DNA of 64,000 nt from Deltaproteobacteria bacterium (GTDB lineage: Bacteria > Desulfobacterota > Desulfobacteria > Desulfobacterales > JAHEIW01), in contig JAHEIW010000002.1 of assembly GCA_024639185.1 (NCBI GenBank), positions 2,842 through 66,841 of the forward strand. The letters run 5' to 3'. The position numbers were made by a program, and so were the translations under genes. Under the pieces are notes generated by a model. It worked only from the letters and a program-made list of their open reading frames with translations, ran no database searches and had not been told where the DNA came from. This document shows, piece by piece, positions 18,646 through 41,779 of the stretch (its first letter is position 1; each line of letters begins with the position of its first letter).

Positions 18646-19992
18646 TCAGCATGTAAAAATCTTTTTTATTGAGCATTCAAGTTTAGAAAAATTACGAGAT
18701 GGAATTTCGTAAAAATTCGATATCGAGGACATCGATTGCAAGTACTTCATTTTGTGCATAAGAATTAGCCCTGTAACTTCAGTTAAAACTGCCATTGCTA
18801 TAGCAGCGTGGTATCCCCACTGTGTTGCTATTAAGCCGCCTAAAGCTGAACCCGCAACGCAAGCCGTTGCGAGAACCGCACAAAAAATGCCCATGCCTTC
18901 CCCTTCCCCAATAGGTGATAGTGATGCTGTTAAGGCAGTGGCGCTTACAATAAGAAAGGGCCAGCAAAGCACAACGACAGTAAAACTTAAAAATATCAAC
19001 TGAATCGAGCCGCCAAAATGGTGCACCTCCATAAGAAAAAAACCGATAAAAGCCACCAAACGCAATTTCATAAAACTCTTTAAAACGCGGGCCGGACCCA
19101 ATCGATGCGTCCAGTGGCCGGCTTGAGCGTATAAAAAAACAGAAATGCCCATTGCGACAGCAAAAGAGAGTGCGATAAGATTTTGCCCAATTCCATATGC
19201 TTCCTGCATCAAAACCGGATACAAAGTATAAATTGCAGATGAGCCAACAAGGCAGAGAAACCAGACCCCCATGAAATGTTCAAATGGGGTGTTGTGGATT
19301 GAATTAAAATGCCCTAAAGCTTTTAACCTCAAATGGTTAACCTGAAAGTGTGATGGCTCCTGGATCAAGTGACAGTGGCGATTATGACAAATGTTAACCG
19401 GTCGTCTCCCTATTGTCTCGTGCGCCACTTGGGGAGTCAGGCACCCTGGCAAGACCGCAGCAGTAATCAGGCCTGACGCAATAAGCAAACTGGTTCTCAA
19501 ATCAATTTGACTCAAAACGGCGGCAAGTAACATTCCGCTTACCTGACCGCCGCTGTTAAATGTCTGGAGCCAGCCAATTCGTTCGTCCCATTCTGCTTTA
19601 GGATGGACTTCCACGATGAAAAGGTTTCCTACAGTGGCAACCACGTATACGCCAATACCCTGTATCATAGCCAAACCCAGCCATACCGGGAAGGTACTGG
19701 CGAAAGATAAAACAGACAGTGCAATTGCAGTAATTATCAGACTGCTTACCAATAACTCCCGATGAATTCCATACCGATCAGCAACATTCCCAAAAACCGG
19801 CGCGATTAACCCTCCCAGGTTAAAGGCAGCCATTACGAGTCCCACGTGGCAGGCGCTGTTAAAGCGTTTTACCGCCAGAAGCGGTATCAAAATCGGAAAC
19901 ATACCGCCCATCGTACAACCCAATATAGCATAGCTAAGATACCATGGCTCCACCCACCGGTGTTTTGCCTGTCCTATTGCCGGTCGATCCAT
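18646..19992 (-). CDS. MFS transporter (12-TM type)
   Basis: Multiple TM helices and the MFS-type loop motif GNVADRYG. The track start at 20058 overlaps the sigma-54 promoter at 20052-20067. I therefore prefer the internal ATG at 19992 (MDRPAIGQ, AAGGA upstream), with 20040 as an alternative. Confidence 0.78.
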   Translation of the reverse strand: MDRPAIGQAKHRWVEPWYLSYAILGCTMGGMFPILIPLLAVKRFNSACHVGLVMAAFNLGGLIAPVFGNVADRYGIHRELLVSSLIITAIALSVLSFASTFPVWLGLAMIQGIGVYVVATVGNLFIVEVHPKAEWDERIGWLQTFNSGGQVSGMLLAAVLSQIDLRTSLLIASGLITAAVLPGCLTPQVAHETIGRRPVNICHNRHCHLIQEPSHFQVNHLRLKALGHFNSIHNTPFEHFMGVWFLCLVGSSAIYTLYPVLMQEAYGIGQNLIALSFAVAMGISVFLYAQAGHWTHRLGPARVLKSFMKLRLVAFIGFFLMEVHHFGGSIQLIFLSFTVVVLCWPFLIVSATALTASLSPIGEGEGMGIFCAVLATACVAGSALGGLIATQWGYHAAIAMAVLTEVTGLILMHKMKYLQSMSSISNFYEIPSRNFSKLECSIKKIFTC

Positions 19993-20051
19993 GGAAGCTG
20001 TTTTTCCTTTGATTGGAGATTGACCAGATGATGGACTCATACTTTTTATAA

Positions 20052-20067
20052 AGCACAAAATGTGCCA
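20052..20067 (-). promoter_or_regulatory. Sigma-54 promoter upstream of the MFS transporter
   Basis: Minus-strand sequence TGGCACATTTTGTGCT. Confidence 0.6.
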
Positions 20068-20343
20068 CTCATTTCACGCCACTTTGTAAAGCTTAAGCCT
20101 TTATATTTATATGGTTTTAAGGAGCAGCCAGCCATAACTTATTGGCGTATTTAGAATAATCTCAAACTAAAATTCTCAAATTTTCGAAATAAAAAGGGGG
20201 GGAGCAAAGTTGTGAAGGGCGTCTAATACAAATGGAGGCAAAAATTTTATTAGATTATGAGATGAGGAATTTTCCTTATAAAAATCGGCTGAGGTTACGC
20301 ACTCTATTAGAGCTAATATTATGATTTTGGAGTTTATTAAATT

Positions 20344-20709
20344 TTAATAGGGTTCGTAATATCTTACACCGATACCGTATTTATAGGATTCTGTGCTTAA
20401 TATTTCTTCGCACCGTTTGACTTCGCCAACGGTTACTGTACGACAACCACAGTGTAATTGCGAACCGGCGGTTCTTTTCGAAAGTTCTATAATTCTGATA
20501 TATATATTTGCCCCGGGTTTAAATCCAAACTCCGATTCAAGATAGAGACCACCTTCACAATAGTTTAACATTTTTGCGTGACAGTATTGATTGGTGTTAA
20601 AATAGCCACAGACAAGGCGAGCCTCCTGAAAATGGCGATCAAATTTCCTTTTTTCCATATTGGCCACGATATTGGTTTCACCTTTTAGCATCAAGTCAAA
20701 GAGTGGCAA
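20344..20709 (-). CDS. PilZ-domain protein (putative c-di-GMP binding)
   Basis: RKFDR (RxxxR) followed by NYCEGGL ((D/N)xSxxG-like). The TTG track start is uncertain. Confidence 0.5.
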   Translation of the reverse strand: MPLFDLMLKGETNIVANMEKRKFDRHFQEARLVCGYFNTNQYCHAKMLNYCEGGLYLESEFGFKPGANIYIRIIELSKRTAGSQLHCGCRTVTVGEVKRCEEILSTESYKYGIGVRYYEPY

Positions 20710-20717
20710 TTTGAAAT

Positions 20718-20909
20718 CTACCCCTTTTTGTTGTTAGGCGAATAACCGTCAGCGTACCACCCGCTGCCCTTGAGTTCGTAAGTACAGGGAGAAATAATCT
20801 TTTTGGGCCTTCCGATGACACAATGGACATTTAATTCCTCTGTGCCAACTTTAACTAGTTTTGCTGTAACCGTGCCGCCGGGACATTCGAATTCATAAAT
20901 CGGCATCAC
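20718..20909 (-). CDS. FmdB-family zinc-ribbon-like small protein with a degenerate Cys pattern
   Basis: MPIYEFEC... N-terminus and GSGWYADGY tail resemble the CxxC_CxxC_SSSS family. Both CxxC knuckles are reduced to single Cys residues. Confidence 0.45.
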   Translation of the reverse strand: MMPIYEFECPGGTVTAKLVKVGTEELNVHCVIGRPKKIISPCTYELKGSGWYADGYSPNNKKG

Positions 20910-21101
20910 GAAGTCCTCAATCTTGAAAGAAAGTTAGAGAAAATATCGGACAAAAATTCTTACACGATTTTATACAAAATGAGTGCCACCACAGACTCCC
21001 TTATTAAAGTATAACCGTTGGAGCCTATTAAGCATCCGTTGGTTCTTGTTGTGTGTGTTGAAGTTGGGTGGCACTTTAGTTATTTATAAGGCGACGCCAA
21101 A

Positions 21102-21497
21102 TCAATCTTGTTTGTATAATCCTCTTTCACGGTGGATATCCCGTATATTAATCAAATGGGTCAAAGATGCCATAAAGGTGTCCGATGTAAACGGCTTTTC
21201 GATGAATCCCTGAACCTTCAATTTCTTGGCCTCTGAAACGACATTTTCATTGCGGTAGGCAGTAATCAGTATTTTTAAGGCGTTTGGTTGGGTGTGGCCA
21301 ACTCGTTTCAGGAACTCGATACCATCCCTGCCCGGTAGTTTATAATCCACGATAATTAAATCAAAGTCTTGGTCCTTTATTGCTGATAGGCCCTCTTCGG
21401 CGGTCTCTAAGGTCAACACACAACAACCTTCAGCTTCAAAAAAAATGCTCAACGAATCACGGATCCACTCATCATCATCTATGAGTAAAATTTTCAT
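21102..21497 (-). CDS. Single-domain response regulator (CheY-like receiver)
   Basis: MKILLIDDDEW...DLIIVDYKLPGRDG...ILITAY...FIEKPF. I prefer the ATG at 21497 (AGGGA RBS). The track start at 21524 lies only 14 nt from the sigma-54 promoter. Confidence 0.85.
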   Translation of the reverse strand: MKILLIDDDEWIRDSLSIFFEAEGCCVLTLETAEEGLSAIKDQDFDLIIVDYKLPGRDGIEFLKRVGHTQPNALKILITAYRNENVVSEAKKLKVQGFIEKPFTSDTFMASLTHLINIRDIHRERGLYKQD

Positions 21498-21537
21498 TTC
21501 CCTGATTTTACTAAAGAGATCCATAACGCTTTACATA

Positions 21538-21553
21538 AGCATAAGATATGCCA
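21538..21553 (-). promoter_or_regulatory. Sigma-54 promoter upstream of the single-domain response regulator
   Basis: Minus-strand sequence TGGCATATCTTATGCT. It differs by 1 nt from the promoter at 18582-18597. Confidence 0.65.
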
Positions 21554-21679
21554 ATATGTGATACCAAATAAATTCTCTATTTATCAATAGGTTATCTAAA
21601 CACACCACGTTTGCTTTTAGTTTTATGGTTAAAATTTTGAAAATTTACAAAAATATATTTCGCAAAAATTCGAAATCTT

Positions 21680-21882
21680 CTAAAGAAATAAATGATCGTC
21701 ATGAGCAGTGAATTTGATAGGCAGTTTTTCGTTTTGTGTTGCGTATAAAATATCCTTTAGAAACATGTCGATAAAGGATTTCAACCCACTGCCTGCTGCT
21801 CTGAAAGCCAGACCCGATGCCGCTGTTGTCTTTCCTTTGCCGTTGCCTGTATAAATATGGACGTATCCTTTTTTAAATCCAT
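21680..21882 (-). pseudogene. Truncated and frameshifted remnant of ATP:corrinoid adenosyltransferase (CobO/BtuR type)
   Basis: The minus strand encodes ...GFKKGYVHIYTGNGKGKTTAASGLAFRAAGSGLKSFI..., the CobO P-loop region. This frame has no start codon. The only ATG (21880-21882) is out of frame across an A6 run. The ORF ends after about 67 codons, against roughly 175 aa for CobO. Confidence 0.5.
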
Positions 21883-22008
21883 TTATGGAATTTATTGTGA
21901 ATTTGGTGGATTAGCTTCTGCAGTCGGAAGAATATGCCTTTGTATGCATACCTTCATTTACAGTATCGTTTAACCGGCGTTTTCTGAAAATAGCACTTTC
22001 GGGCTTCT

Positions 22009-22650
22009 TTATGATCTAACCGCCTTTACCACGACGAAACCTCCATCACCATGCCCATCGCAGGGGGGTTCGATTTCTTGAATCTCATTTAATGGTTTTG
22101 TTAAAGTTTGCCTCCAGACGAGGTCGACAAATCCTGCATGTCCCATAAGCCTTTCTATTTCCAAAACCGAATAAAACCGTGCTTCACGATAAAAGACGCT
22201 TTCGGCCTGATGTGCCAGATAATGCTGTCCGAGCATGCTGGCCCGATCGACAAAACCAATGACAAGCGGTGCTCCTGATTTCAGTACCCGGTGGGCCTCA
22301 TTCAGCATTTTTTGGAGATCATTCACGAAGCAGATGGTGGTTACGACAATGGCATAGTCGAAGACTACATCCTTGAAGGGCAAAGTCTCGGCAATACCCT
22401 GAATGCCGAATATACCTCTTTCAATGGCGTAGGCCAACATTGCTCTGGAGGGATCGAGGCCGACTTCGATGCCGAGGGGAGCTGCAAAGCGGCCCGTTCC
22501 GACACCGATCTCAACCCCCAAGCCATGCCAGGGGAGCATGGCGCGGACAGCCAGCAACTCGGAATAATAAGCTGCGGCGTGGCTCTGAAACCATGCTTCA
22601 TAACGACCATGGTAGGCTTCAAAAGGATTACTCTTATATCCTGTCATCAT
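22009..22650 (-). CDS. Class I SAM-dependent methyltransferase
   Basis: 213 aa. Motif I VEIGVGTGRFAAPLG and post-I/II spacing typical of the Methyltransf_11 fold. Confidence 0.75.
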   Translation of the reverse strand: MMTGYKSNPFEAYHGRYEAWFQSHAAAYYSELLAVRAMLPWHGLGVEIGVGTGRFAAPLGIEVGLDPSRAMLAYAIERGIFGIQGIAETLPFKDVVFDYAIVVTTICFVNDLQKMLNEAHRVLKSGAPLVIGFVDRASMLGQHYLAHQAESVFYREARFYSVLEIERLMGHAGFVDLVWRQTLTKPLNEIQEIEPPCDGHGDGGFVVVKAVRS

Positions 22651-22789
22651 CGCCCTTATTTGCTTACCCCCTCAGACCGGAACCTATCCTTTGAAAAGGC
22701 CGTACCATTAGCGATGGCTCTTTCATTTCAGACGGAAAAAGAATCTTCTTTTCTTAACGCAAATTTTCATGCGAAAATCAATTGATAGC

Positions 22790-22819
22790 CTCAAAAAAAT
22801 TCAAGAGCATCCTGCTCTT
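22790..22819 (-). terminator. Possible intrinsic terminator
   Basis: Minus-strand sequence AAGAGCA-GGA-TGCTCTT followed by GAATTTTTTTGA. The stem is 7 bp with a tight 3-nt loop and a T7 run. Confidence 0.35.
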
Positions 22820-23003
22820 TATTGTTCATCTGTGCTTCCAAACAATCGCAGAAAGTATCGAATGTTAAATACATACATTTATCTGAATGAGATGATTTTT
22901 GATAGTATCGACATTTTTTTTGCTTATTCACGTTTTTTGCTGTGCAGACAGAAATAATATCTTTTTTACAAAAACAAACTTTGCTTGTGTTCTGCACTGC
23001 CAT
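22791..23003 (-). CDS. Candidate small Cys-rich protein (70 aa)
   Basis: MAVQNTSKVCFCKKDIISVCTAKNVNKQKKCRYYQKSSHSDKCMYLTFDTFCDCLEAQ... contains 8 Cys. RBS AAGGTGA lies 5 nt before the ATG. The 3' end overlaps a hairpin plus T-run. Composition is AT/Lys-rich, unlike the neighbours. Confidence 0.33.
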   Translation of the reverse strand: MAVQNTSKVCFCKKDIISVCTAKNVNKQKKCRYYQKSSHSDKCMYLTFDTFCDCLEAQMNNKEQDALEFF

Positions 23004-23235
23004 TTCTTCACCTTGTATTGTCCTGAAAAATTAAAAATAAAAGCCCCAGGGCATAAAAAGAATAGCCGGGCGATAAAAAATAATCTAAAAATCGAAAGGC
23101 CCGTTTGTTTATGTGAACCTTTAGCTTTGTGTGCTGTCGCACCATGAAAATTGTCTGTGCGATCGCCCATACAAAAGATGGGTACCTCATAGTACGAAAT
23201 TATCCGACGAATTGTTGCACTGAAGCTACCGGGTA

Positions 23236-23901
23236 TTATTGGTATTGGATGACCGCACCTAACAGTAAGGATTTGAACCGATCCAATGAAATCGTGTACG
23301 GCTGGATCGGAATTCCCATCCAATCTGAGTATTCCAAAAATTCTTCCGGTTTTTCAGCCATATAGTTTTCCACGAATCCAACACCATCTAAAACAACGGC
23401 TCCGCCTGAGTGCCTGGGAAAGTTTTCGTTGGCCAGTCCCTTGTCCCAATCTTTGAAAACATGATGGCGAAATTTGATCCAGCCCGGTGTCATCCACCAC
23501 ACTTTTTCGCCACCGGCAACTTCTCCAGCGATTTTTTCCCGCTCAGCCTCACCGGCCAGCGCGTCAATACAATGGGTCGCTTGAGCGCGCGTAACCGCCG
23601 AATCCTGTTCTGCTAAAATGGTTTGCATGGTGCGCGTGGGCTCATCGGCATTCACGTAGCAAAATTTTCCGCCGTACACCACAATGACCTTGTCGGCCTT
23701 TTCTTTAGCCTTAGCGATTCGCTGAATCAGTTGGCGTTCCAGTTCATGAATGTCTTCGTGGAGTCCCGGTGTCGTGTAGAATAAATGAACGGTGTCTAAA
23801 AAACCGTTCTTTTTTAAATAGTTGAGCTCAAGGCTCAGCGTGCCGCAGGACACAATTGCGATGCTCGAAAAAGACGAATTATTCATCATACTTTTCTCCA
23901 A
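23236..23901 (-). CDS. DUF1638-like protein (family usually next to corrinoid methyltransferase systems)
   Basis: 221 aa. IAIVSCGTLSLEL...VIVVYGGKFC pattern as I recall it for DUF1638. Family name is from memory. Confidence 0.6.
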   Translation of the reverse strand: MEKSMMNNSSFSSIAIVSCGTLSLELNYLKKNGFLDTVHLFYTTPGLHEDIHELERQLIQRIAKAKEKADKVIVVYGGKFCYVNADEPTRTMQTILAEQDSAVTRAQATHCIDALAGEAEREKIAGEVAGGEKVWWMTPGWIKFRHHVFKDWDKGLANENFPRHSGGAVVLDGVGFVENYMAEKPEEFLEYSDWMGIPIQPYTISLDRFKSLLLGAVIQYQ

Positions 23902-24193
23902 TTTTCAGATCCTGATCTTTTTCCGCCAACTGGCAGTTAGCCCTGGGCTTAATCTGTCAGGTCAAACAGGACCCGGTAACGTTGACTGATTTCACAGCTC
24001 CTTTAGATATATAATATAAAAGATTTTTCAACCATCCCCGATTTTTTGGATTCTGTCTTGCAATCATCCTGCCCCCATCAATATATTTAAATTAAACTGC
24101 AAGGGTTTACATCGGATCAAACAAATAAAGGTGCTTAACTTTTTTTATCCGATCAATGGCGCGGCCAGCCCGATTACGAAATCTTTCATCAAC

Positions 24194-25132: not shown

Positions 25133-25229
25133 GACTTAACCCATCAAGGATAGCCAAATAATTAATTGCCCATTGTTTAGTTAGCAGCTCACCAGTATGT
25201 CCATGAATCATGGCCGCTATGTTTAAAAC

Positions 25230-25703: not shown

Positions 25704-25872
25704 TTTATTGACACTATAATTCAACCGAATCCGCAAAGAAGCGGGTATCGTCTATTAAGTATGGAACTTTTTCACTTCCCAGCTTAAGACAGGGGTAATT
25801 CCGGCTTTTTCGATCAGGCTGATGGCAGCCCGATCGTCAAAAGATTTGCTGCGCCGGTAATGCTGTATGACC

Positions 25873-26395: not shown

Positions 26396-26411
26396 AGCAT
26401 AAAGCGTGCCA
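26396..26411 (-). promoter_or_regulatory. Sigma-54 promoter upstream of the DUF5320-like operon
   Basis: Minus-strand sequence TGGCACGCTTTATGCT. Confidence 0.7.
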
Positions 26412-26701: not shown

Positions 26702-28588
26702 CTATCGCCTTTGATGCCTTGCGTTGCATTCTTCAAAAATAGAATCGATCGAATCCTTTTCGATGTCCTGCCCAATTAGAGTCAGAAATCTGTCCGACAT
26801 ATTGGGATTATTAAATTCTGAAAACTCATAACGTCCCCCAACATACTGAAAGAGCATAGGTTTTTCGGTGCCCTTAAATTCTATTATACCTTTAATGCGG
26901 AAGATCAAGTGTGGAGTAGCCTCAATGGCGTTGATAAAGCGCTTCTTATTAATCGGTTCGGTAAACGAAATTTTATAACTTGAGAGTCCATCGTGTTCAT
27001 GCGACTGGCGGATTTGATGCGTTTCACCTTGATTTTTTTTCTGGTGGTTGATTATTGCTTCATCTTGCGGGTCAACCCCATAAATTAGGGTAGGATTGAT
27101 GTCGCCCTGTAAAGTCGCTATAATGGGGGCTGTCGGATTAATCTTTTTTAGTTTTTGCCTTATTTCCTGTAGTCGAAGGTCGGTTAAAAAATCTCTTTTA
27201 TTTAATAGCAAAATGTCAGCTGCTTTTATCTGATCCGCTACGACATCATAATCTTTCAGCGATTGTACCACATTCAGACCGTCAACCATTGTGGTGATGG
27301 AATCAAATCGGACCCATTCTTCTATTTCTGATATTTCATCCAGGAGATTGTAGGGATTGGCCACGCCGGTGGTCTCGCACACAATATAGTCAGGATGGAA
27401 GTTTGATAAAATTTGACGAATGGCGTTTTTTAAATTCCCCACCAGGGTGCAACATATACACCCCTCGTCGATTTCAGTGACGGCGTAATCATCATTCAAC
27501 AATTTTCCATCCAGACCGATTTCACCTATCTCATTTTGAATTACAGCCACAAACCGATTCAGTTGAACTTGATATTCAATAAAATGTTGTAAAAAACTGG
27601 TTTTGCCCGAGCCCAAAAAACCAGTCAGCACAAGCAATTGGGGCCGATCATCGACACCCAAAATTTTCTTATCAAGGGTTTTATAATCACTTAATTGATG
27701 CGCTTTCCACCATAGCGCATCTTTATATTTTGGTATGACCGCCTCTCCTATTTCCCAGTTAACCTCGTTGCTGGGGGGAACCGTTTTATCCGCCATAGTC
27801 TCGACAATGTTTCTATAACTTGCTTTCCCGTATCCTAAATATAGTGATTCTTCATTTGAATCGTCTAATGGAATTTGCCAGTGATGGCCGGTGGCATCGT
27901 AGACGACATCTTTTCCAGGTCGACGCAAATAGCTCATATAAACAGGGGGCACTTCGAGATTAAACGTAAAAGAAGCAGCCAAAACCTGATAAAAAGCCAA
28001 AGCAGTGCTGTAGGAAGGAAAATTTTGATCATAACCCCCTGGCTGGATCAGCTCAACCAAACGCCCCTCTCGGAGTAATGATACTCCGTCTATGGCAATG
28101 AGTCTCTGCCGAGAAACACTTTCAAGCCCCAGAATCAAGGCATCGCCTCCCTTGCTGATACCCAATTCGATGATCCCGATATTAAATAGCTCGCAAAGCT
28201 GCGGATAAAATAAAAACTCCCGGATATGAGGGAGATAGTCTTCCCTTTGGGTATAAGCACCAGCCTGCAAAGAAAAAAGCTCAACCAAATCTTCTTGCGG
28301 ATCCGGAAAATATAGTAAAACAAATTTGGCGATTAACCAATCTTGAACTGAGTCGAGGGCTTCAAAATACATTCCGAAAACACCTGACATATCTTTGATT
28401 TTAGCCGTCCAGCCCTCCACACTTGTAAAGGTTTCCTTCAGCCCCCGCCACCCAATGACATGCCGCACACCGGGGATAAAATTCGTCCTGACCAAAATCC
28501 CACGCATTAATTCCTGAATCCCCTGCTCAGGAGAAGATAGAATTTCATTTGGACCTAATTGTTTCAGTTTCGTTAAAGAATTGCTCAT
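26702..28588 (-). CDS. CobW/G3E-family metallochaperone GTPase with a roughly 310-aa N-terminal extension of unknown function
   Basis: P-loop GFLGSGKTS, metal motif EGCICCTL and NKRD (NKxD). A His-rich linker (THQIRQSHEHD) and a CobW_C-like tail follow. The first 310 aa or so have no motif I recognise. Confidence 0.8.
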   Translation of the reverse strand: MSNSLTKLKQLGPNEILSSPEQGIQELMRGILVRTNFIPGVRHVIGWRGLKETFTSVEGWTAKIKDMSGVFGMYFEALDSVQDWLIAKFVLLYFPDPQEDLVELFSLQAGAYTQREDYLPHIREFLFYPQLCELFNIGIIELGISKGGDALILGLESVSRQRLIAIDGVSLLREGRLVELIQPGGYDQNFPSYSTALAFYQVLAASFTFNLEVPPVYMSYLRRPGKDVVYDATGHHWQIPLDDSNEESLYLGYGKASYRNIVETMADKTVPPSNEVNWEIGEAVIPKYKDALWWKAHQLSDYKTLDKKILGVDDRPQLLVLTGFLGSGKTSFLQHFIEYQVQLNRFVAVIQNEIGEIGLDGKLLNDDYAVTEIDEGCICCTLVGNLKNAIRQILSNFHPDYIVCETTGVANPYNLLDEISEIEEWVRFDSITTMVDGLNVVQSLKDYDVVADQIKAADILLLNKRDFLTDLRLQEIRQKLKKINPTAPIIATLQGDINPTLIYGVDPQDEAIINHQKKNQGETHQIRQSHEHDGLSSYKISFTEPINKKRFINAIEATPHLIFRIKGIIEFKGTEKPMLFQYVGGRYEFSEFNNPNMSDRFLTLIGQDIEKDSIDSIFEECNARHQRR

Positions 28589-30046: not shown

Positions 30047-31459
30047 TTACTTAATGACATCGATTGCCGCATAAAATACCGGCAACAAAGCAATTGTTAT
30101 AAAGTAGGCTACTACTCCAACAACGGCCCCGACACCCATGCCCCAACCCAGGGCGGGATTCCACCTGACGTCTCTGACAAGAGCCTGCTCGGCTTCATGA
30201 TCGCGGGCAATTTCCTCGGCGGTTTTGGGAACCATCTTCCAACCGGGCCAGTTGTCCATAAACCAGTGGTGTACCAGCCAGATGTTAATCAACCAGATAG
30301 TCGGAATCATTGGAAACTGCTGCGGATGCGAAAACCCTTTTTGAGTGCCCAGAAAGTTATGAGATGTCTTGTAGTATAAAATATACAGCAGGATGGCGGC
30401 AACGATCGTAATCACCGTCCGGATAAGTACGTTGACCGGCATGCTGAATTTTTTGGGCCAGTTGTTGCAGTAAAAGGTAATAAACAGGGCCGGTACCAAA
30501 AAGAACACTGCCATTTCACCAACATGCAGCCAGCGCCAATCCGGTGCAAAAGCTCTACGGGTACCCCGAATGGCCGGTCCCCAGGTCATTTCCTGTAGAA
30601 AATAGAGAAAGAAATGCATGGCAAAGGCAATGGCGATGATTCCAAAAAACGCCACCAGGCGCCGCAACCAGTTCCGCTTGATCAGATTAAACGGATAGCG
30701 ACCCCAGATGGTTTCAACAATCCAGACCGTGACCGTACAACACATGATCCAGGAAACGTGAAAGTTGCCGGAAACGGTGTTGGCGAATTTTTCCCAATAG
30801 GGCGGTGCAATTGAAGTAAAATACTGCCAGGGATAATATAAAATGCCCATGTGCGAATGCATGGTCATAAAATAGACCAAGGTGCTCAGGAAAAAAGTCA
30901 TAATCAGAATACTGACGCCCTTTCCCGGTTGTTTTAAATCCTGCCAGGGGGCCTCCTCGCAGGCAACCACCCAGGCCGGACTCAACCAGGAAGCAATGGC
31001 AGCAAACATCAGGCAGGCCAGAGCCGCGTATTCGATCGCAAAAAATTCGGTAACCCCCGGCAGTTTAGTCAGTTGTCCGGGGTTAAAATAGGCCAAACCA
31101 AAATTTCCCAGCAGCCCTTCAAAGAAACCTTTGATCAAAATGTACAGGACGCCAAACGAGACGGCTGTGAGGACCCCCCCTTTTATCAGTGGATGGGTTT
31201 TTTCCAGCCAGGATCGTTTAAAAGGCCAGTAATTAAAAATGTAAACCATCCAGATGAGTACGATCAACCACCACCGTGTATACATATAGCCCACATAGGG
31301 TGTATACATTCGCATCCATCCGCGCGGATCCTGGAAAATCCACCAGGTGGCATAAAACAAAATCAGCGTAAAGACCAAGCTGACAATGGCCGGAATCGGC
31401 TGCGGCCATCGTTGCGTAAGGCTACGCTCCTCCAGATAGTCTATACCAAATTTTTCCAT
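30047..31459 (-). CDS. Polytopic Trp/Tyr-rich integral membrane protein of unknown family (470 aa)
   Basis: At least 10 hydrophobic segments. Very high aromatic content, with about 35 Trp. RBS GGAAGGAGG. Confidence 0.7.
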   Translation of the reverse strand: MEKFGIDYLEERSLTQRWPQPIPAIVSLVFTLILFYATWWIFQDPRGWMRMYTPYVGYMYTRWWLIVLIWMVYIFNYWPFKRSWLEKTHPLIKGGVLTAVSFGVLYILIKGFFEGLLGNFGLAYFNPGQLTKLPGVTEFFAIEYAALACLMFAAIASWLSPAWVVACEEAPWQDLKQPGKGVSILIMTFFLSTLVYFMTMHSHMGILYYPWQYFTSIAPPYWEKFANTVSGNFHVSWIMCCTVTVWIVETIWGRYPFNLIKRNWLRRLVAFFGIIAIAFAMHFFLYFLQEMTWGPAIRGTRRAFAPDWRWLHVGEMAVFFLVPALFITFYCNNWPKKFSMPVNVLIRTVITIVAAILLYILYYKTSHNFLGTQKGFSHPQQFPMIPTIWLINIWLVHHWFMDNWPGWKMVPKTAEEIARDHEAEQALVRDVRWNPALGWGMGVGAVVGVVAYFITIALLPVFYAAIDVIK

Positions 31460-34297: not shown

Positions 34298-34409
34298 GAT
34301 GAAGTCCTTACAAAGTGGGATTACAGAAAATTTTTTAAACTCACATAAAAATTTTTCATGGAATCGGCAAAATATTTATCCATCTAACCCCGATTTTGTG
34401 AAATTTATA

Positions 34410-36440
34410 TTACGCCGATTCGAGTTCCCGGCGCGCGGCCATATCCACCAGTATTCGTTCTCTGGCCTTGTCGATGCCGAGATCGCTGCGCTTCTTGTCG
34501 ATGTGGGCAATCATCTTGTGGGCGTGCTTAATCGGATCGACTTCCAGGTCCCACATACCGCCGTACATTTTTTCAAATTCCTTGAACAGGTAGTCTTTAA
34601 ACACCGGTGCACCGGATACCGGAAGGGTGACACCAAAAACCGTGTAGACACCGGAGGCCACAAAATAATGGCCGATACTGATGGCTTTTTCACTCATCCA
34701 TTCCGGCGCGCTGCCGGCCGCAGGCAGATCACTGATGTCGTTGCCCAGGCCACCGGCCTTGACCACCTCTGTGGCCGCCAGCAGGATACGGCTGTTGTCC
34801 ACACAGGATCCCAAATGCAGCACGGGCGGAATACCGACGGTTTCACACACCTCGGCCAGACCCGGCCCACAGAACACACGGGCGGATTCCGGCGTCAGCA
34901 AACCCTCCATGGCGCAGGCAATTGCATTGCAACCGGTCGTCAGCACAATCACGTCATTTTTGATGAGCTCCTTTACGATCTGGATATGACTCTCATTATG
35001 CCGGGTCCTCACATTGTTGCACCCCACTACACCGCCAATTCCGCGGATGCGACCGTTAATAATGTTGTCGTTCAACGTGTAGTAAGACCCGCGAAACATG
35101 CCGCCCAGATGGTATTCGATGGATTCCACACCGAAACCCGCTACGATCGGAGATTTCTGCCTGGGGATCATCACCTCGGATTTTCGGGTTTCAAAATTGT
35201 CAATGGCCAGCTTGACGATCCTCTCGGCATCTTCGATGGCATGATGCTCATCAAACTCAATGTGAATGACGTTGTCCTGTTCCATACGGGCAATGGGGTG
35301 GGTGGTAATCAGTTTAGTGTGAAAGCATTTGGCCACGTTGGCTAAATTTTGAAAGATACATTGAATATCGACGACCATGGCATCACAGGCACCTGTGATG
35401 ATAGCCAGTTCCTGCTGCAGAAAGGTCCCGCACAGGGGCACCCCGTGGCGCTGTAAAATCTCATTGGCCGTACAGCAGATGCCGGAAAGCTGGATGCCTT
35501 TGGCGCCCCTGGATTTGGCATATTCATGCATCTCTTTTTTCTGGGAGACCGCAACGATCATCTCGGAGAGCACCGGTTCGTGGCCGTGAATGACGATATT
35601 GACCATGTCTTCTTTCATAACTCCGAGATTGGCTTCGGATGCCAGCGGATAAGGCGTTCCAAAGAGGATGTCCTGCAGCTCGGTGGCCAGCATCGAACCG
35701 CCCCAGCCGTCGGCGATGGCCGCGCGGGTGCCCTGCTTCATCAGGTTTTTGTAATCCTGATCCACACCGATGTGGGTGCGGTGCATGATTTCAACAATTT
35801 CGCGGTCGATGTTGCGCGGCAAAACGCCCTGCTTTTGCCAGAGCTCGTAACGCGGCTCAGGCGCGCGCCTGGCAAAAAGAAGTTCGCCTTCAGCCTTGCC
35901 CCATTCATTGAGCGCTTTTTCACCGACTTCCACGGCGATTTCATCCATATCCCGATCAAGCTGCTCACCGTCAACCTCCACCGTTGTGTCGACGCCCAAA
36001 ACCCCGGCCACTTCGATAAGCTTTTTCTTATCCTTGATCTTATAAGCATCGGTTTCTTTTCGCGCAGCGGCCATAAAGATTTCTGCCACTGAACGGCCAT
36101 GGTCCGAATGGGCGGCTGCACCGCCGGCAATCATGCGGATAAAATTGCGGGCCGCAATAGTGTTGGGAGTAGCCCCGCAAATTCCCTTGCGGGTGTCTTC
36201 GCCCTCAATCCCGCCTTTGGGAAGCGGCAGGCGACAGGGCCCCATGCCGCAGTTTTTACAGCAGATACCCTGGGTTCCGATATTACACGGTTTCATTGTC
36301 ACAGCCCGGTCAAAGGCTGTCTCCACCCCCAGGTCATGGGCCCGTTGAATCATCTGCTGACTGGCCGGATCAATGGTTGCCGCTGCAGGATCAGCCAATT
36401 TCTTTGCCTTGGGCGCTTCTTTTTCGTTTTTTTCTGCCAT
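34410..36440 (-). CDS. cooS: Anaerobic Ni,Fe carbon-monoxide dehydrogenase catalytic subunit
   Basis: 676 aa. N-terminal D/B-cluster Cys motif CNIGTQGICCKNCGMGPCRL and C-cluster region ...HGHEPVL...GICCTANE...GCNNV.... RBS AAGGAGGA. Confidence 0.95.
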   Translation of the reverse strand: MAEKNEKEAPKAKKLADPAAATIDPASQQMIQRAHDLGVETAFDRAVTMKPCNIGTQGICCKNCGMGPCRLPLPKGGIEGEDTRKGICGATPNTIAARNFIRMIAGGAAAHSDHGRSVAEIFMAAARKETDAYKIKDKKKLIEVAGVLGVDTTVEVDGEQLDRDMDEIAVEVGEKALNEWGKAEGELLFARRAPEPRYELWQKQGVLPRNIDREIVEIMHRTHIGVDQDYKNLMKQGTRAAIADGWGGSMLATELQDILFGTPYPLASEANLGVMKEDMVNIVIHGHEPVLSEMIVAVSQKKEMHEYAKSRGAKGIQLSGICCTANEILQRHGVPLCGTFLQQELAIITGACDAMVVDIQCIFQNLANVAKCFHTKLITTHPIARMEQDNVIHIEFDEHHAIEDAERIVKLAIDNFETRKSEVMIPRQKSPIVAGFGVESIEYHLGGMFRGSYYTLNDNIINGRIRGIGGVVGCNNVRTRHNESHIQIVKELIKNDVIVLTTGCNAIACAMEGLLTPESARVFCGPGLAEVCETVGIPPVLHLGSCVDNSRILLAATEVVKAGGLGNDISDLPAAGSAPEWMSEKAISIGHYFVASGVYTVFGVTLPVSGAPVFKDYLFKEFEKMYGGMWDLEVDPIKHAHKMIAHIDKKRSDLGIDKARERILVDMAARRELESA

Positions 36441-36601
36441 TGGATTCCTCCTTAGAGCGTATGTGTTTTTCTAATGATTGAGATGCCGAAATTCTGGAAG
36501 CTGCATTGGGTTCGAGCAGCGAAAAGAAAAATTTTAACCGCATGGCAGTTAAATCATTTCAATGAATTTCGAAATGACTCACTGATTTACGAAGGAAATT
36601 T

Positions 36602-36617
36602 TGCATGATGTATGCCA
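36602..36617 (-). promoter_or_regulatory. Sigma-54 promoter upstream of cooS
   Basis: Minus-strand sequence TGGCATACATCATGCA, about 160 nt upstream of the cooS ATG. Confidence 0.7.
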
Positions 36618-36893
36618 TTAATCAAAGATGACAGCATATTATAAATATTCAGTAACTTAGAATATTATCTGATATAGAAAGAGAGGGTTGAGAATCTCAG
36701 ATTCGAAAAACTTCAAATTATTTTTCGCATAATTTCTAAGTTGATTTATCGAAGATTATAAAGGTTTGGTAAAAAGGTAAGATTTTCTTTGGATTTCCAC
36801 TGCGAAAAACAATCAATCATTTAGTGATGATATGTAACTACGTAAATTTTCATTCCTAAGGCTTTCCGATTTTCTATTGGCTTCGTCCAGAAA

Positions 36894-37394
36894 TCATGTC
36901 TTTTCTTTTCTCGACAATGAAATAATGTGAACAGGGGTATCGGTTCTACGAATTACTTTTCGGGCTAAACTTGGACAAAGGATTCGGCCCAAAAACTTTC
37001 TTCTGCGAGGCCCAAAAATAATCATTTCACATCCCCACTGATTGGCCTTGTTAACAATTTCCTCTGCTATCTTCCCGTAGTGAACAACAAGGTATGCGAT
37101 TGTATCGAGGTGTTCGGGATGATCATTTGGTTTCGTTTTACTGGTCATCTTAAATTGCCCTTGCATCCGCTGTAATGCGGCCTTCGATTTTTCTTGGAGG
37201 GTTTTGGATCCATGGGTGCTATCAAAAGACATAGGAAAAAAATTAGAAAAGGTAATCGATCCTTGATCGATGATGTGGAAAATAATCAGTTTGGCTTTGT
37301 GATGGTATGCAAGTTTTATGGCGTAAGGGATTGCCGCAATGGAATCCGCTGAAAGATCTGTTGCATAAAGCATTCTATGAAGTTCACTGGCCAT
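36894..37394 (-). CDS. Universal stress protein family
   Basis: 166 aa. MLYATDLSADS...KLIIFHI...CEMIIFGPRRR...VIRRTDTPVHII. Confidence 0.72.
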   Translation of the reverse strand: MASELHRMLYATDLSADSIAAIPYAIKLAYHHKAKLIIFHIIDQGSITFSNFFPMSFDSTHGSKTLQEKSKAALQRMQGQFKMTSKTKPNDHPEHLDTIAYLVVHYGKIAEEIVNKANQWGCEMIIFGPRRRKFLGRILCPSLARKVIRRTDTPVHIISLSRKEKT

Positions 37395-37574
37395 ATAGAA
37401 TATTAATTTTTATCTTTCTGGCTAATTTGATCTGTGAAGTTAATTTAGAGTAATTTCGAAGATTGCCTTTAAAAATGACAAATACAGGCGAGATATCTCA
37501 GGAATGAATTAGATCTATAGATTTTTATTGAAATAAAAAAGAATATAGAAGCGCAGTAATAAGAAGACTGCAAG

Positions 37575-38963
37575 TTAATCACCCAGCAATTTTTTTCTGC
37601 GGTAACGGAAGGTGTGATGATTCATTTTCAGTAACCTTGCGGCTTGGCTTTCATTTCCTTTAGCGATTTTAAGGGCCTGTTCAATATAGTCCCTTTCAAA
37701 TGATTGAAGCTGCTCGGACAAATCAATCCCTTCGGGAGGCAAAAGGGCAAGCTCGGCCTCATTTTTGGCTACGGTAAATTGTTGATGCTGATTTTTAAAT
37801 TCAATGCCCAGGTCCTTCAGTTTGAGCTGAGGTCCAGTGCCGATTAGCACTGCTCCTTCCATGAGATTTTTTAACTCCCGAACATTGCCGGTCCAGTTAT
37901 GCGCCAATAACGCATGCTTGGTATCAGGCGATATGTCGCTAAATTCCTTATTAAACTTAGAGCTGAACTCTTGAAGAAAATATTTCGCCAGGGGCACAAT
38001 ATCGTCTGGCCGCTCGTTTAATGAGGGTACCTGGACTTTGACTACCCCCAGTCGGAAATAAAGATCCTTTCGAAATAAACCGTCGTCGATCATCTTATTA
38101 AGGTCTTTGTTGGTGGCGGAAATTAAGCGGGTTTTGATATGTAATTTTTTGGTCCCCCCGACTCTATAAAATTCGCCGAGCTCAAGAAACCTGAGCAGCT
38201 TGGCCTGGGCTTCAAGACTAAGATCGCCAACTTCATCTAAAAATAAAGTACCATTTGCCGACTCCTCGATTAGCCCTTTCTTACCGGATGCTCCGGCACC
38301 GCTGAAGGCTCCTTTTTCATATCCGAAAAGCTCACTTTCGATCAGATCTTTTGGGATAGCCGCACAGTTTACGGTTGCGAAAGGCGCTTGGAAGTTCGGG
38401 CTGTTATAGTGAATAGCGCTGGCAATTAATTCTTTCCCGGTTCCAGTTTCGCCCATGATGAGCACCGGTGTGTCAGGGCTTTTCGCCACCATTTGGACAA
38501 AGTCCATCACATCCTGAATGGCATTACTCTCCCTGATAAAGCATGGGATATTTTCTTTTAGGTGCTTTTCCTGTAAATGTTGAATTTCCTTTTTTAGCCG
38601 GATTGAATCCAGGGCATTGCGAATCGTGACCTCCAATCCGTCCATGTGGAGCGGCTTGATGACATAGTCATAGGCCCCCAGTTTCATGGCCGATATCACG
38701 GTATCGACATCTTCATAAGCCGTTATCATGATGACCAGTATTTCAGGATTTGAGGATTTGATTTGGCGAAGCGCTTCAATCCCATTCATCCCAGGTAAGC
38801 CAACATCAAGCAATACCAAATCGGGGGGATCCTCTTCCAAGGCATTGATGGCAGGTTCCGCCTGTGGAAAAGACCGAATACGATAATCGGCTTCAAGGGT
38901 CAATGTGATGCCGTCACGTATGGTCTGTTCATCGTCTATAACGAATATGGAAAAGGTAATCAT
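37575..38963 (-). CDS. NtrC-family sigma-54-dependent response regulator (REC-AAA+-HTH)
   Basis: REC (VIDDEQT...LVLLDVGLPGMNG...KP), Walker A GETGTGKE, GAFSGA loop (GAFTGA variant), and a C-terminal Fis-type HTH (GNESQAARLLKMNHHTFRYRRKK). Confidence 0.93.
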   Translation of the reverse strand: MITFSIFVIDDEQTIRDGITLTLEADYRIRSFPQAEPAINALEEDPPDLVLLDVGLPGMNGIEALRQIKSSNPEILVIMITAYEDVDTVISAMKLGAYDYVIKPLHMDGLEVTIRNALDSIRLKKEIQHLQEKHLKENIPCFIRESNAIQDVMDFVQMVAKSPDTPVLIMGETGTGKELIASAIHYNSPNFQAPFATVNCAAIPKDLIESELFGYEKGAFSGAGASGKKGLIEESANGTLFLDEVGDLSLEAQAKLLRFLELGEFYRVGGTKKLHIKTRLISATNKDLNKMIDDGLFRKDLYFRLGVVKVQVPSLNERPDDIVPLAKYFLQEFSSKFNKEFSDISPDTKHALLAHNWTGNVRELKNLMEGAVLIGTGPQLKLKDLGIEFKNQHQQFTVAKNEAELALLPPEGIDLSEQLQSFERDYIEQALKIAKGNESQAARLLKMNHHTFRYRRKKLLGD

Positions 38964-38969
38964 AATTCG

Positions 38970-41648
38970 CTAAGCTCCTTTGCGTTTTTTTAATGGAATT
39001 TCGATCCGAAATTCCGCACCCCCTAATTCACTGGCCGACACGGTCATTGATCCACCGTGATCGCTGATAATTCGGTGACACAAACTCAAACCGATACCGG
39101 TTCCCTCGTGTTTGGTAGTAAAGTACGGATCCAGTATTTTATCTCTCATTTCAAGGGGAACACCCGGTCCTGAATCAGAAACTTGAATAATAATTCGGTC
39201 GGCTTCAACGAAAGACGCAACGACAATATTTTTGCCGGTTTCCATAGTTTTCATAGCTTCGGCAGCATTATTTAAAAGGTTTAATACCATCTCTTCAATT
39301 AAGTTTTTATCTGCATATGATTGCGGCAAATTATTTGACAATAATTTATCGATTTTTATGCCGCTTTTGCCCATCGTCACGGCAGTAAGGTTGATCGCAT
39401 CTGTGATGGGTTCATTGATATCGATTAAGGTTATCTTCGGTTCACTGGGTTTGGCGAAATCCATGACTCTTCGAATAACGGATTCAATTTTAATAGATGC
39501 TGATTGAAGTTGTTTCAATATTTGCTCAACTTTTGCTTCAGTTCCATCCCGGTGATGGAGTTTTTTGAGCGTGTTTAGATAGATATTGATTCCCGAAAGA
39601 GGATTTCGGATTTCATGTGCAATACCGGCTGCCACCCGACCCAGAGATGCCATCTTATCCTGGATGGTTAAGAGATGTTCAAGTTCTTTGGCTTTGGTCA
39701 TGTCCATTATATTGACCAGTATCGCATCTTTCCCCTGAAATTCTATCCGGCTGGCCTGGCAATGGACCCATTTCATTTGGCTCCGATTGGCTCTTCCATC
39801 CTGTGGATAAAATCTGAAATCCATAGATTCAATCGGCAGATTCCCCGACCTGATACTTTTATAAAATGCATCTACCTTTGCGATATCGTCCGGGTGGATA
39901 GAGTCCTTGTCTTTAAATTTAATCGGACGCGGTAATGGACCCAGCAGTCTTTCTTGTTCCGGATTCTGGTAGACGATTTGGTCATTTTGAATGATCGATA
40001 TACCCGTTAAGGAATGTTCTACTAATTCTCGAAAGCGTTTTTCGCTTTCAACTATGGCCGTTTGCGCTCGATCGCGTTCTATGATTCGTCCAATTCGTTC
40101 AGCAATCGTATTTATCAAAGCTCTTTCTTCTATTAAAAACGGTCCCTCATCGCTTTCCGGTCGCTCTTCAAGATAATGAGCAGATAGAACACCAACCGTC
40201 TTATCATTGACAATAATGTTTTGTGCAAGCATCCTTTGTGTTTCTTCAAAGTTTTCTGTGCTGAATTCTTGACTGTCTATGATGATTCTACCACATGTGA
40301 TTTCTGGATACTGATAAGCCGGTGGAATGAGCTCAACGATTCCCTGGAGGATCTCCTCTAGTGTAAGTCTGCGTCTTTCAACCAAACGTGAAATCTCAAA
40401 AAGGCAATTTAACTCTTTAATCCGCTCTTCCACCTCATTCATACTTTTCTGTAAATCTTTCTCTACTGATCTGCGTTTCTTTATCTCTTTATCCAATTCA
40501 TCCCTTGAAGCTGTAACAGCCTTTAACCGGTCAGTCATTTGATCGAATGCCCGTCCCAGCTGTCCGATCTCATTCCGTGCATCGGTAGCAATTTTATGGT
40601 CTAAATTGCCTTTACCGATTTCTTCCGCACCAGCTTGTAAAAGTTGAATCGGATCGGATATGGATTTTCCAACGATAAATGCAGCAAACATACTGATTAC
40701 AATAAGAGCAAGGACGAGCACGAGGACAAAATTTCTTAACGTCGTTATGGGTTCAAAAGCTTCAGCGACGTCTATTTTGGCCACCATCCCCCAGTCCAGC
40801 GAAGGAATGTATCGCCAGGCTGCGATGACTTTTTGCCCGCGGTAGTCCACAGATATTCCACTTCCGTTGTTGCCGTTGAGCGCTTTTTGAACAGGTATGG
40901 CTTGCTTTTCACCAAAATCAACCTTTCTCTTTAGAACTGCACTTGGATCATGACGAAGTGGATTTAGAAACAGAGCTTGATTCCCGGCTTTTTTGGCGAT
41001 CAACGTCTCACCGGTTGTTCCCAAACCGGTCGTATTTTGAATGAGTTCGTAAATGGGTGCCATGTCGCTCTCAAAAGCGGCTACGCCAATGAGCTGGCCC
41101 ATATCAGAACGAATCGGAGCTGAGATGATCATGGAGAATTGGCCGGTTTCGATTTTACTGGCAACAATATCTGAAAGTTGGATTCCGGTTTTGCCATCAT
41201 CAAATGATGTCCCCAACAGGTCCGGTTTGATCGTGCCAAGTATGCCCGAAGCTAAAGAGCGATCCAAAACGTAGACGATCCTTCCCGTCGAATTTATCAG
41301 GATAACGTTTCTGAAATCATAAACCGGCTTATATATTCGAATGGCCTGGTCAAGTTCGTCTCTGATGGCTTCATAAACCGGAGTGGAAAAGTCGCCCGAA
41401 AAGTCTGCAAGCATGGCAGCCAATTTTTTTAGTGTTGGGCGCTCTTGTGCAATCTGGATGTGTTTTTTCTGATCGACGAAAAAGTCTTCTATTCTTTTGA
41501 CCTTGAGATCGGCAATGCTTTGCAATTCTTCCATTCGCAGGGATGTCAGAGCTTTCATGGCGTGATAATATCCAAGCAGACCGACAAAACACATTGGTAT
41601 GATCGTGCACGCCAGAAGAATCATGATCATTTTTTTTCGGACGGTCAT
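38970..41648 (-). CDS. Sensor histidine kinase with periplasmic Cache-like domain, HAMP, GAF/PAS, HisKA and HATPase
   Basis: Two TM helices flank a periplasmic domain of about 270 aa. HAMP, H-box AAGIAHEIRNPLSGI and G-boxes DSGPGV / GTGIGLS are present. Confidence 0.9.
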   Translation of the reverse strand: MTVRKKMIMILLACTIIPMCFVGLLGYYHAMKALTSLRMEELQSIADLKVKRIEDFFVDQKKHIQIAQERPTLKKLAAMLADFSGDFSTPVYEAIRDELDQAIRIYKPVYDFRNVILINSTGRIVYVLDRSLASGILGTIKPDLLGTSFDDGKTGIQLSDIVASKIETGQFSMIISAPIRSDMGQLIGVAAFESDMAPIYELIQNTTGLGTTGETLIAKKAGNQALFLNPLRHDPSAVLKRKVDFGEKQAIPVQKALNGNNGSGISVDYRGQKVIAAWRYIPSLDWGMVAKIDVAEAFEPITTLRNFVLVLVLALIVISMFAAFIVGKSISDPIQLLQAGAEEIGKGNLDHKIATDARNEIGQLGRAFDQMTDRLKAVTASRDELDKEIKKRRSVEKDLQKSMNEVEERIKELNCLFEISRLVERRRLTLEEILQGIVELIPPAYQYPEITCGRIIIDSQEFSTENFEETQRMLAQNIIVNDKTVGVLSAHYLEERPESDEGPFLIEERALINTIAERIGRIIERDRAQTAIVESEKRFRELVEHSLTGISIIQNDQIVYQNPEQERLLGPLPRPIKFKDKDSIHPDDIAKVDAFYKSIRSGNLPIESMDFRFYPQDGRANRSQMKWVHCQASRIEFQGKDAILVNIMDMTKAKELEHLLTIQDKMASLGRVAAGIAHEIRNPLSGINIYLNTLKKLHHRDGTEAKVEQILKQLQSASIKIESVIRRVMDFAKPSEPKITLIDINEPITDAINLTAVTMGKSGIKIDKLLSNNLPQSYADKNLIEEMVLNLLNNAAEAMKTMETGKNIVVASFVEADRIIIQVSDSGPGVPLEMRDKILDPYFTTKHEGTGIGLSLCHRIISDHGGSMTVSASELGGAEFRIEIPLKKRKGA

Positions 41649-41742
41649 GTTAACGACTCTTGTATTTTTAAACGCAGATAAAGTTGGGCGATGCCGATTA
41701 AGTTAGCTTTTAAGCTGGAATTGCAGTCTACTATAACAAATA

Positions 41743-41779
41743 ATTTCGAAATTTTGCGAAAAAAATTTCGAAATTTTTC
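41743..41779. promoter_or_regulatory. Tandem palindromic candidate enhancer (UAS) sites AAATTTCGAAATTT x2
   Basis: aatttcgaaatttt (41743-41756) and aaatttcgaaattttt (41764-41779). The CG centres are 22 bp apart and lie 120 and 98 bp upstream of the GG of the sigma-54 promoter at 41867. Confidence 0.5.

Follow-up and report, generated by a model that had tools for sequence, protein, structure and literature searches.

The window analysed here is a 64,000-nucleotide stretch of a Desulfobacterales genome (GenBank assembly GCA_024639185.1, contig JAHEIW010000002.1, positions 2,842 to 66,841), in which a dCache sensor kinase and an NtrC-family response regulator, hereafter the 37575 activator, are encoded among operons preceded by predicted sigma-54 promoters. 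The element in question is a pair of 18-bp dyads, a predicted enhancer, that recurs at a fixed distance upstream of these promoters. The window was scanned with the pattern TGGCAY-N6-TGCW and, in parallel, with a promoter matrix, and both returned exactly eight elements, the same eight that an earlier note on this DNA had listed (Table 1). Two promoters are on the plus strand, with the T of TGG at 41867 and 46921, and six on the minus strand, with this T at 18597, 20067, 21553, 26411, 31917, and 36617. These elements scored 18–27 bits on the promoter matrix, the next best position in the 64 kb reaching 10.8 bits, and every one of them has a co-oriented open reading frame (ORF) 30–180 bp downstream. 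All eight fit the -24/-12 type, which is characterised by GG and GC dinucleotides 10 bp apart within TGGCAC-N5-TTGCW, and are predicted sigma-54 promoters. They are confined to a 28-kb stretch (18500–47000), with none in the other 36 kb.

Upstream of seven of the eight promoters, an 18-bp dyad unit with the consensus TTTCGAAATTTTTCGAAA occurs twice; no dyad unit was found at the eighth, P46921. Measured from the T of TGGCA, the distal dyad of the seven starts at -121 to -125 and the proximal dyad at -98 to -102, 22–23 bp apart, which places the dyad centres about 114 and 92 bp upstream of this T and at roughly -140 and -117 relative to the inferred transcription start. The enhancer therefore spans 40–41 bp (18 + 4–5 + 18), as exemplified by TTTCGAAATTTTGCGAAA, a 4–5-bp spacer, and TTTCGAAATTTTTCTAAA. 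For leave-one-promoter-out scoring, a matrix was built from the sites of six promoters and the whole window (about 64,000 positions) was scored, with each of the seven held out. Both held-out sites ranked between 1 and 9 at every one of the seven promoters.

The earlier note had described the shared site as a 10-bp CG-centred palindrome about 120 bp upstream of the promoters. A shared upstream site was borne out, and the CG coordinates and distances tabulated in that note all agreed when recomputed from the site coordinates, but the unit is replaced by two 18-bp dyads. A CG is possible at unit positions 4–5 and 14–15 of each dyad, and this two-dyad layout accounts for the reported distances of 123/113, 120/110, 100, 98, 96, and 89 bp as well as for the "second site 10–22 bp away". 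The 10-mer core ATTTCGAAAT makes up half of the dyad unit and lacks specificity by itself: of the four perfect copies in the window, two (17153 and 36566) lie outside enhancers, as do seven of the ten copies of TTTCGAAA. The copy at 36566–36575 falls in the cooS leader (about +43 of P36602), and the copy within 17144–17162 sits between the gene for the lipoyl-domain protein and that for the CBS protein; in relatives, CBS genes are preceded by a cassette of their own. At P41867, where two perfect copies of AAATTTCGAAATTT had been reported, the first is actually TAATTTCGAAATTT, a match at 13 of 14 positions.

Table 1. Promoters, dyads, IHF-like sites (IHF, integration host factor), and regulatory genes in the window
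Feature	Position	Strand	Sequence	Remarks
Sigma-54 promoter P41867	41867–41882	+	TGGCATACTCCATGCT	27.2 bits
Distal dyad of P41867	41744–41761	+	TTTCGAAATTTTGCGAAA	26.0 bits; leave-one-out rank 2
Proximal dyad of P41867	41766–41783	+	TTTCGAAATTTTTCTAAA	26.5 bits; leave-one-out rank 1
IHF-like site of P41867	41825–41837	+	TAACCCTTTAATT	One mismatch to YAANNNNTTGATW
Sigma-54 promoter P36602	36602–36617	-		Pattern and matrix
Distal dyad of P36602	36723–36740	-	CTTAGAAATTATGCGAAA
Proximal dyad of P36602	36701–36718	-	ATTTGAAGTTTTTCGAAT
Sigma-54 promoter P31902	31902–31917	-		Pattern and matrix
Distal dyad of P31902	32021–32038	-	TCTTGAAATTTTTCTAAT
Proximal dyad of P31902	31998–32015	-	CTTCGCAATTTTTCTAAA
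IHF-like site of P31902	31945–31957	-	TAACAAATTGATA	Perfect YAANNNNTTGATW
Sigma-54 promoter P26396	26396–26411	-		Pattern and matrix
Distal dyad of P26396	26519–26536	-	TTTCGAAGTTCTTCAAAT
Proximal dyad of P26396	26496–26513	-	TATCGAACTTTTTCAACA
IHF-like site of P26396	26441–26453	-	TAATAGTTTGATT	Perfect consensus
Sigma-54 promoter P21538	21538–21553	-		Pattern and matrix
Distal dyad of P21538	21658–21675	-	TTTCGAATTTTTGCGAAA
Proximal dyad of P21538	21635–21652	-	TTTTGTAAATTTTCAAAA
IHF-like site of P21538	21582–21594	-	TAACCTATTGATA	Perfect consensus
Sigma-54 promoter P20052	20052–20067	-		Pattern and matrix
Distal dyad of P20052	20172–20189	-	TTTCGAAAATTTGAGAAT
Proximal dyad of P20052	20150–20167	-	GTTTGAGATTATTCTAAA	Weakest site; leave-one-out rank 9
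Sigma-54 promoter P18582	18582–18597	-		Pattern and matrix
Distal dyad of P18582	18705–18722	-	TATCGAATTTTTACGAAA	Within 3' end of MFS ORF
Proximal dyad of P18582	18682–18699	-	TCTCGTAATTTTTCTAAA
Sigma-54 promoter P46921	46921–46936	+		Without dyads; internal negative control
Candidate activator gene (REC, sigma-54 AAA+, HTH_8)	37575–38963	-	Helix MNHHTFRYRRKK
Cognate sensor kinase gene (dCache_1, HAMP, HisKA, HATPase)	38970–41648	-		Adjacency to activator gene conserved in relatives
Lone dyad remnant between activator and Usp genes	37444–37461	-	CTTCGAAATTACTCTAAA	No sigma-54 promoter follows

Conservation and symmetry of the dyad pair

Loci encoding relatives of the 37575 activator, one genome per species, were collected together with two long contigs, giving 221 kb of sequence on which no matrix had been trained; the regulator copies examined in these relatives are 60–89% identical. 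In this set, a dyad stands at the canonical offsets of 16 of the 22 sigma-54 promoters, and the 32 dyad hits with a promoter no more than 400 bp downstream are all 91–127 bp away from it, clustering at 100–105 and 122–127 bp. The positional conservation that the earlier note expected thus persists in related genomes. Metagenome contigs were scanned with a single dyad as the query and without promoter information, resulting in 80 readable loci. If a partner dyad was present 21–25 bp away and enough flanking sequence was available, the locus was counted as paired. A sigma-54 promoter was found at every paired locus (14/14) and at no locus with an isolated dyad (0/62), so the proposed association between motif and promoter holds for the pair and fails for the single palindrome. 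The promoter lies at +101/102 or +123–125 in 13 of the 14 paired loci; in L114 it occupies the other strand at a distance of 105 bp from the matched dyad, and in the promoter's own orientation the pair is at -122/-99. Several metagenome loci hold extra promoters, and these too are preceded by dyad pairs at the canonical offsets.

With near-duplicates removed, 31 non-redundant promoters share this layout, with modal offsets of -123 and -101 and a dyad spacing of 22–23 bp in all but one (30/31). The fixed offsets in relatives and the association of the pair with promoters support the earlier suggestion of an upstream activating sequence (UAS) for a common enhancer-binding protein. The element has the properties expected of an NtrC-family enhancer, namely dyad-symmetric sites in the range of about 15–20 bp, at least two of them in the interval about 80–150 bp upstream of the promoter, conservation across genomes with specificity for sigma-54 promoters, and a candidate activator gene nearby. 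The sequence between enhancer and promoter is otherwise unrelated among cassettes, indicating that they are not recent duplications.

Across 62 sites, the most conserved positions of the dyad are T3, G5, A7, T10, T12, C14, A16, and A17. Positions 3 and 16, 5 and 14, and 7 and 12 are mirror pairs, and G5 and C14 are each kept in 59 of the 62 sites amid an A/T context. This mirror pairing fits a likely binding mode of one dimer per dyad, as predicted from the site sequences. Reading the site instead as a direct repeat of two CG-centred units 10 bp apart fits nearly as well overall because TTTCGAAA is self-complementary, and the frequency profiles cannot separate the two readings cleanly; the direct repeat is nonetheless disfavoured and the dyad preferred, since the invariant positions match up as mirror images. 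Among the 31 non-redundant promoters, the right halves of the two dyads differ consistently, the distal one being TTGCGAAA and the proximal one TTTCTAAA followed by T's (TTTCTAAAtt), and the orientation of the central AAATTTTT is fixed relative to the promoter.

IHF-like sites between UAS and promoter were identified by matches to WATCAANNNNTTR with at most one mismatch. An IHF-like YAANNNNTTGATW starts at -40 to -42 from the T of TGGCA in 12 of the 31 promoters, with no more than two in any other 10-bp bin, a positional peak that is clear without being universal.

Two divergent sigma-54 promoters flank a single dyad pair in L130 (2100–2317), L108 (805–1070), L067 (2615–2881), and L105 (343–634). 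Both divergent promoters are about 100–120 bp from the shared pair in L130, and in L108, L067, and L105 the second promoter is about 140–170 bp from the nearest dyad. Displaced pairs were found in L180 (7359–7473), at -114/-91, and in L008 (5683–5819), at -136/-114, a shift of 10–13 bp or about one helical turn; strict helical phasing is not claimed, as these two cases are too few.

Candidate activator and competing explanations

The 37575 activator matches the Pfam families Response_reg, Sigma54_activat, AAA_lid_14, and HTH_8. It contains a Walker A motif (GETGTGKE), a Walker B motif, and receiver aspartates in LLDVGLPG, and its sigma-54 contact loop, GAFSGA, is a variant of GAFTGA. Its scores fall short of all named NCBIfam equivalog cutoffs, among them those for AtoC (394 of 714 bits), NtrC (383 of 559), and ZraR (297 of 760), and close homologues (73–92% identity) are numerous in metagenome-derived protein collections. 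The best-scoring dyads of the window are located 96–135 bp upstream of the kinase gene. Enhancer–promoter units no more than about 3 kb from the activator gene or from the kinase–activator pair were found in the window and in L002–L006, L008, L014, L090, L180, and L181, corresponding to about 11 genomes; L002–L006, L008, L014, L180, and L181 were retrieved via the activator alone and L090 via the motif alone. All activator orthologues co-located with the enhancer share the same recognition helix, MNHHTFRYRR(K/R) (NHHTFRYRRKK in the window). In L013, in contrast, where the protein is 60% identical and the helix is MNYYSYRYRRKK (YYSYRYRRKK), no dyad and no sigma-54 promoter were found in the 21 kb examined. 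Owing to the co-location, the invariant helix, the contrast with L013, and the differing and non-conserved PAS-type activator of the window (44938–46677), we consider the 37575 protein the probable binder of the dyads. The earlier note had put this regulator forward as the candidate, and co-location in about 11 genomes and the invariant helix strengthen that proposal, with binding as such predicted from sequence.

At the place of the lone dyad remnant in the window, L004, L005, L014, L181, and L090 have a full enhancer and promoter, and the window genome seems to have lost the enhancer–promoter unit downstream of its activator gene. The kinase and activator genes of L014 (CAVPNL010000005.1) are split over several ORFs, probably through indel errors of a long-read assembly rather than as real pseudogenes.

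Several observations weigh against an enhancer that is bound by dimers of the 37575 activator and aided by IHF. The frequency profiles are only slightly more symmetric by mirror than by direct repeat (0.197 vs. 0.218), a margin that makes one dimer per dyad likely rather than proven, and an IHF-like site is recognisable in only 12 of the 31 promoters. The kinase–activator operon of the window has no sigma-54 promoter of its own, and the site just downstream of its activator gene is only a dyad remnant. The nearest enhancer in L002 is 2.5 kb from the regulator gene, the sole enhancer in the GC-rich relatives L007 and L009–L011 is 7–8 kb away and a weak match, and the activator of L180 lacks an adjacent kinase. 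Finally, the view is limited to 64 kb of the genome, elsewhere in which an activator of the same specificity may be encoded. These kilobase distances, the missing kinase of L180, and the small part of the genome in view, together with the many such activators of sulfate reducers (PMC4641369), are also what favours the most serious competitor, in which the sigma-54 enhancer is genuine, its binder is a different enhancer-binding protein whose gene lies beyond the window, and the proximity of 37575 reflects the clustering of sigma-54 genes. We regard this as unlikely, though far from negligible. Eleven of the loci retrieved through the activator protein alone carry the enhancer no more than about 3 kb away, often 50–130 bp from the end of the gene, and the motif-retrieved L090 also holds the activator gene; the helix is invariant where the motif is present and altered in the motif-free L013; and no other activator gene recurs in the examined loci.

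The remaining explanations are less probable still. That the dyads are sites of a nucleoid-associated or repressor protein, or bent A/T tracts merely accompanying promoters, would suit their A/T-rich sequence with phased A and T tracts, the fixed orientation of the central AAATTTTT, and the wide spread of single copies without promoters. It is nevertheless improbable given the retention of G5 and C14 within that A/T context and the metagenome scan, in which pairs were never seen without a sigma-54 promoter; moreover, sigma-54 promoters require an activator (PMC4641369), and no other common candidate site was seen in these upstream regions. We give slightly less credence again to binding by the PAS-type activator 44938–46677, acting as an OrpR-like one-component redox sensor of orp-like genes. 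This protein is encoded in the P41867 operon, beside the best dyads, and the MrpORP-like and DUF5320 targets (Nitro_FeMo-Co in relatives) resemble Desulfovibrio orp operons, but its HTH helix differs from that of the 37575 protein, no orthologue is present in any related enhancer-carrying locus, the promoter immediately downstream (P46921) has other palindromes in place of dyads, and the dyad bears no relation to the OrpR site GGGCGYRTTTTGCGCCC. A chance similarity between AT-rich intergenic stretches, which could draw on short cores such as TTCGAA (36 occurrences in the window) and on the presence of the single 18-mer in unrelated metagenomes, is already refuted and has practically no probability left in view of the leave-one-out ranks, the offsets fixed in 31 non-redundant promoters from many genomes, and the metagenome contingency. 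Binding by the 37575 activator is thus the explanation we retain.

Comparison with known sigma-54 systems

At glnAp2 of enteric bacteria, NtrC occupies two strong dyads on the same face of the DNA about 100–140 bp upstream, where its dimers nucleate the active oligomer. The two dyads upstream of a sigma-54 promoter are the likeness to the present element. The differences lie in the NtrC site, TGCACCA-N3-TGGTGCA as opposed to TTTCGAAA-N2-TTTCGAAA here, in the centre-to-centre distance of about 32 bp as opposed to 22–23 bp, and in the NtrC equivalog cutoff, which the 37575 activator does not reach.

The closest architectural match is AtoS/AtoC of Escherichia coli (atoDAEB), whose activator is likewise a REC–AAA+–HTH response regulator. 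Upstream of its sigma-54 promoter, AtoC has a 40-bp cis-element composed of two 20-bp sites (PMC3118216), compared with the 40–41-bp enhancer described here, and AtoC and AtoS are the best-scoring named NCBIfam models for the activator and the kinase, respectively. The activator score is far enough below the equivalog cutoff that the protein is not an AtoC orthologue; site sequence and sensor domain (dCache here) differ as well, and AtoC serves one catabolic operon as opposed to the many scattered stress and redox operons predicted as targets here.

The nearest counterpart in a sulfate reducer is OrpR of Desulfovibrio vulgaris. The orp operons of Desulfovibrio require sigma-54 and IHF as well as the PAS activator OrpR (PMC8359166, PMC3897727), a combination of sigma-54 promoter, IHF, and palindromic UAS that resembles the arrangement predicted here, and similar kinds of gene occur in both (MrpORP-like ATPases and, in relatives, Nitro_FeMo-Co and DUF5320). 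OrpR is a PAS/[4Fe-4S] one-component activator that binds GGGCGYRTTTTGCGCCC and has a regulon of only two adjacent operons (PMC8359166). In the present case, by contrast, the candidate is a response regulator predicted to be phosphorylated, the site is unrelated, and the predicted regulon is large and dispersed; membership in the OrpR regulon is ruled out by the unrelated motif and the REC-type candidate. DVU0539/DVU0946 of D. vulgaris are NtrC-family response regulators encoded beside a kinase, with a divergent target operon that starts with a universal stress protein gene (PMC3333781); their site, TGCAAA-N5-GTTTGCA (PMC3333781 supplement), is unrelated to the dyad. No published description of the dyad motif was found in the literature searched, nor any work combining TTTCGAAA with sigma-54, and the D. 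vulgaris regulome and DNA-affinity-purified-chip (DAP-chip) literature contained no similar site.

The result is the prediction of an enhancer, of conventional and classical NtrC-family architecture, and of a regulon for a two-component system of that family that has yet to be characterised. It leaves the understanding of sigma-54 activation unchanged and would not surprise a specialist; its value is that of a solid annotation and a good experimental handle, as it supplies a precise, testable regulon and a predicted binding site for an uncharacterised two-component activator. The enhancer–promoter geometry is unusually clean and fixed, and could be used to derive looping constraints at sigma-54 promoters.

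Predicted circuit and regulon

Having located the sites and the co-located regulator, we infer the following circuit, in which the identity of the binder, the assembly of the oligomer, the role of IHF, and the signal are predictions. The dCache–HAMP histidine kinase would sense a signal outside the cytoplasm and phosphorylate the REC–AAA+–HTH activator, dimers of which would occupy both dyads and assemble into an active ring. Bending of the DNA at the IHF-like site would bring this ring to the sigma-54 holoenzyme, and ATP hydrolysis by the ring would open the promoter. One two-component system could in this manner jointly induce a scattered set of operons concerned with stress, redox, and metal-cofactor functions and, via P41867, also drive the second, PAS-type activator, which probably serves P46921.

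Targets in the window were assigned by Pfam and NCBIfam searches. P36602 precedes cooS (34410–36440), which matches TIGR01702 above its cutoff, a 231-residue ORF, a radical SAM gene, and a rubredoxin-like gene. Downstream of P31902 are genes for a 470-residue protein, a metallo-beta-lactamase-fold protein, and a 628-residue CobW-like GTPase. The first of these proteins (30047–31459) matched no Pfam or NCBIfam family, and the GTPase (26702–28588) has an N-terminal extension of about 300 residues without a family assignment. On the same strand downstream of P26396 lie DUF5320, DksA-type zinc-finger, glycosyltransferase-like, DUF1638, and methyltransferase genes, which are candidate operon members. 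P21538 is followed by genes for a single-domain receiver protein (140 residues) and a 121-residue ORF; P20052 by an MFS transporter gene, the likely start of which is the ATG at 19991; and P18582 by genes for an MrpORP-like P-loop NTPase, a lipoyl-domain protein, and probably a CBS protein. The targets of P41867 are an HdrD-like Fer4/CCG gene, a REC–PAS kinase gene, and the gene for the PAS-type activator. The predicted circuit would thereby link cooS, HdrD-like, MrpORP-like, and stress genes. That a shared enhancer co-regulates six or seven operons, as the earlier note proposed, gains comparative support, the regulon itself being a prediction.

In relatives, the cassette precedes universal stress protein (Usp) genes at least eight times. 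It also precedes genes for CBS proteins, single receivers, rubredoxin-like proteins, desulfoferrodoxin, and Hsp20; Nitro_FeMo-Co, DUF134, and DUF5320 clusters; and genes for NifU, TusA-DsrE, flavodoxin, a Na+/H+ exchanger, and cooS. The common flavour of these targets is stress, redox, and metal-cofactor handling. A broader reading, which we offer only tentatively, is that a single dCache two-component system together with sigma-54 might run a lineage-wide stress and redox response in uncultured Desulfobacterales through a copy-and-paste cassette, consisting of the 40-bp enhancer, an IHF site, and a -24/-12 promoter at fixed spacing, the enhancer sometimes being common to divergent promoters. 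On that same tentative reading, the response would have a general-stress role, would sit atop a two-tier activator cascade, and would cover Usp, desulfoferrodoxin, Hsp20, rubredoxin-like proteins, Fe-S and metal-cofactor carriers, cooS, and HdrD-like genes.

The region upstream of P46921 (46720–46840) contains the palindromes TGCAGCATATGTTGCA (46722–46737), TGTTGTACAACA, and TGTTGTAAATAGTGCAACA, which may be the site of the PAS-type activator 44938–46677; an ad hoc pattern for these palindromes returned no matches. Since this activator is encoded in the P41867 operon, a two-tier sigma-54 cascade would follow if the palindromes are indeed its site. In the same operon, at 42047–43354, a Fer4 ORF and a CCG-domain ORF are in frame via a single TGA at 42776–42778 (…YLNTE*GHVTFS…), which suggests a putative selenocysteine-containing HdrD-like protein.

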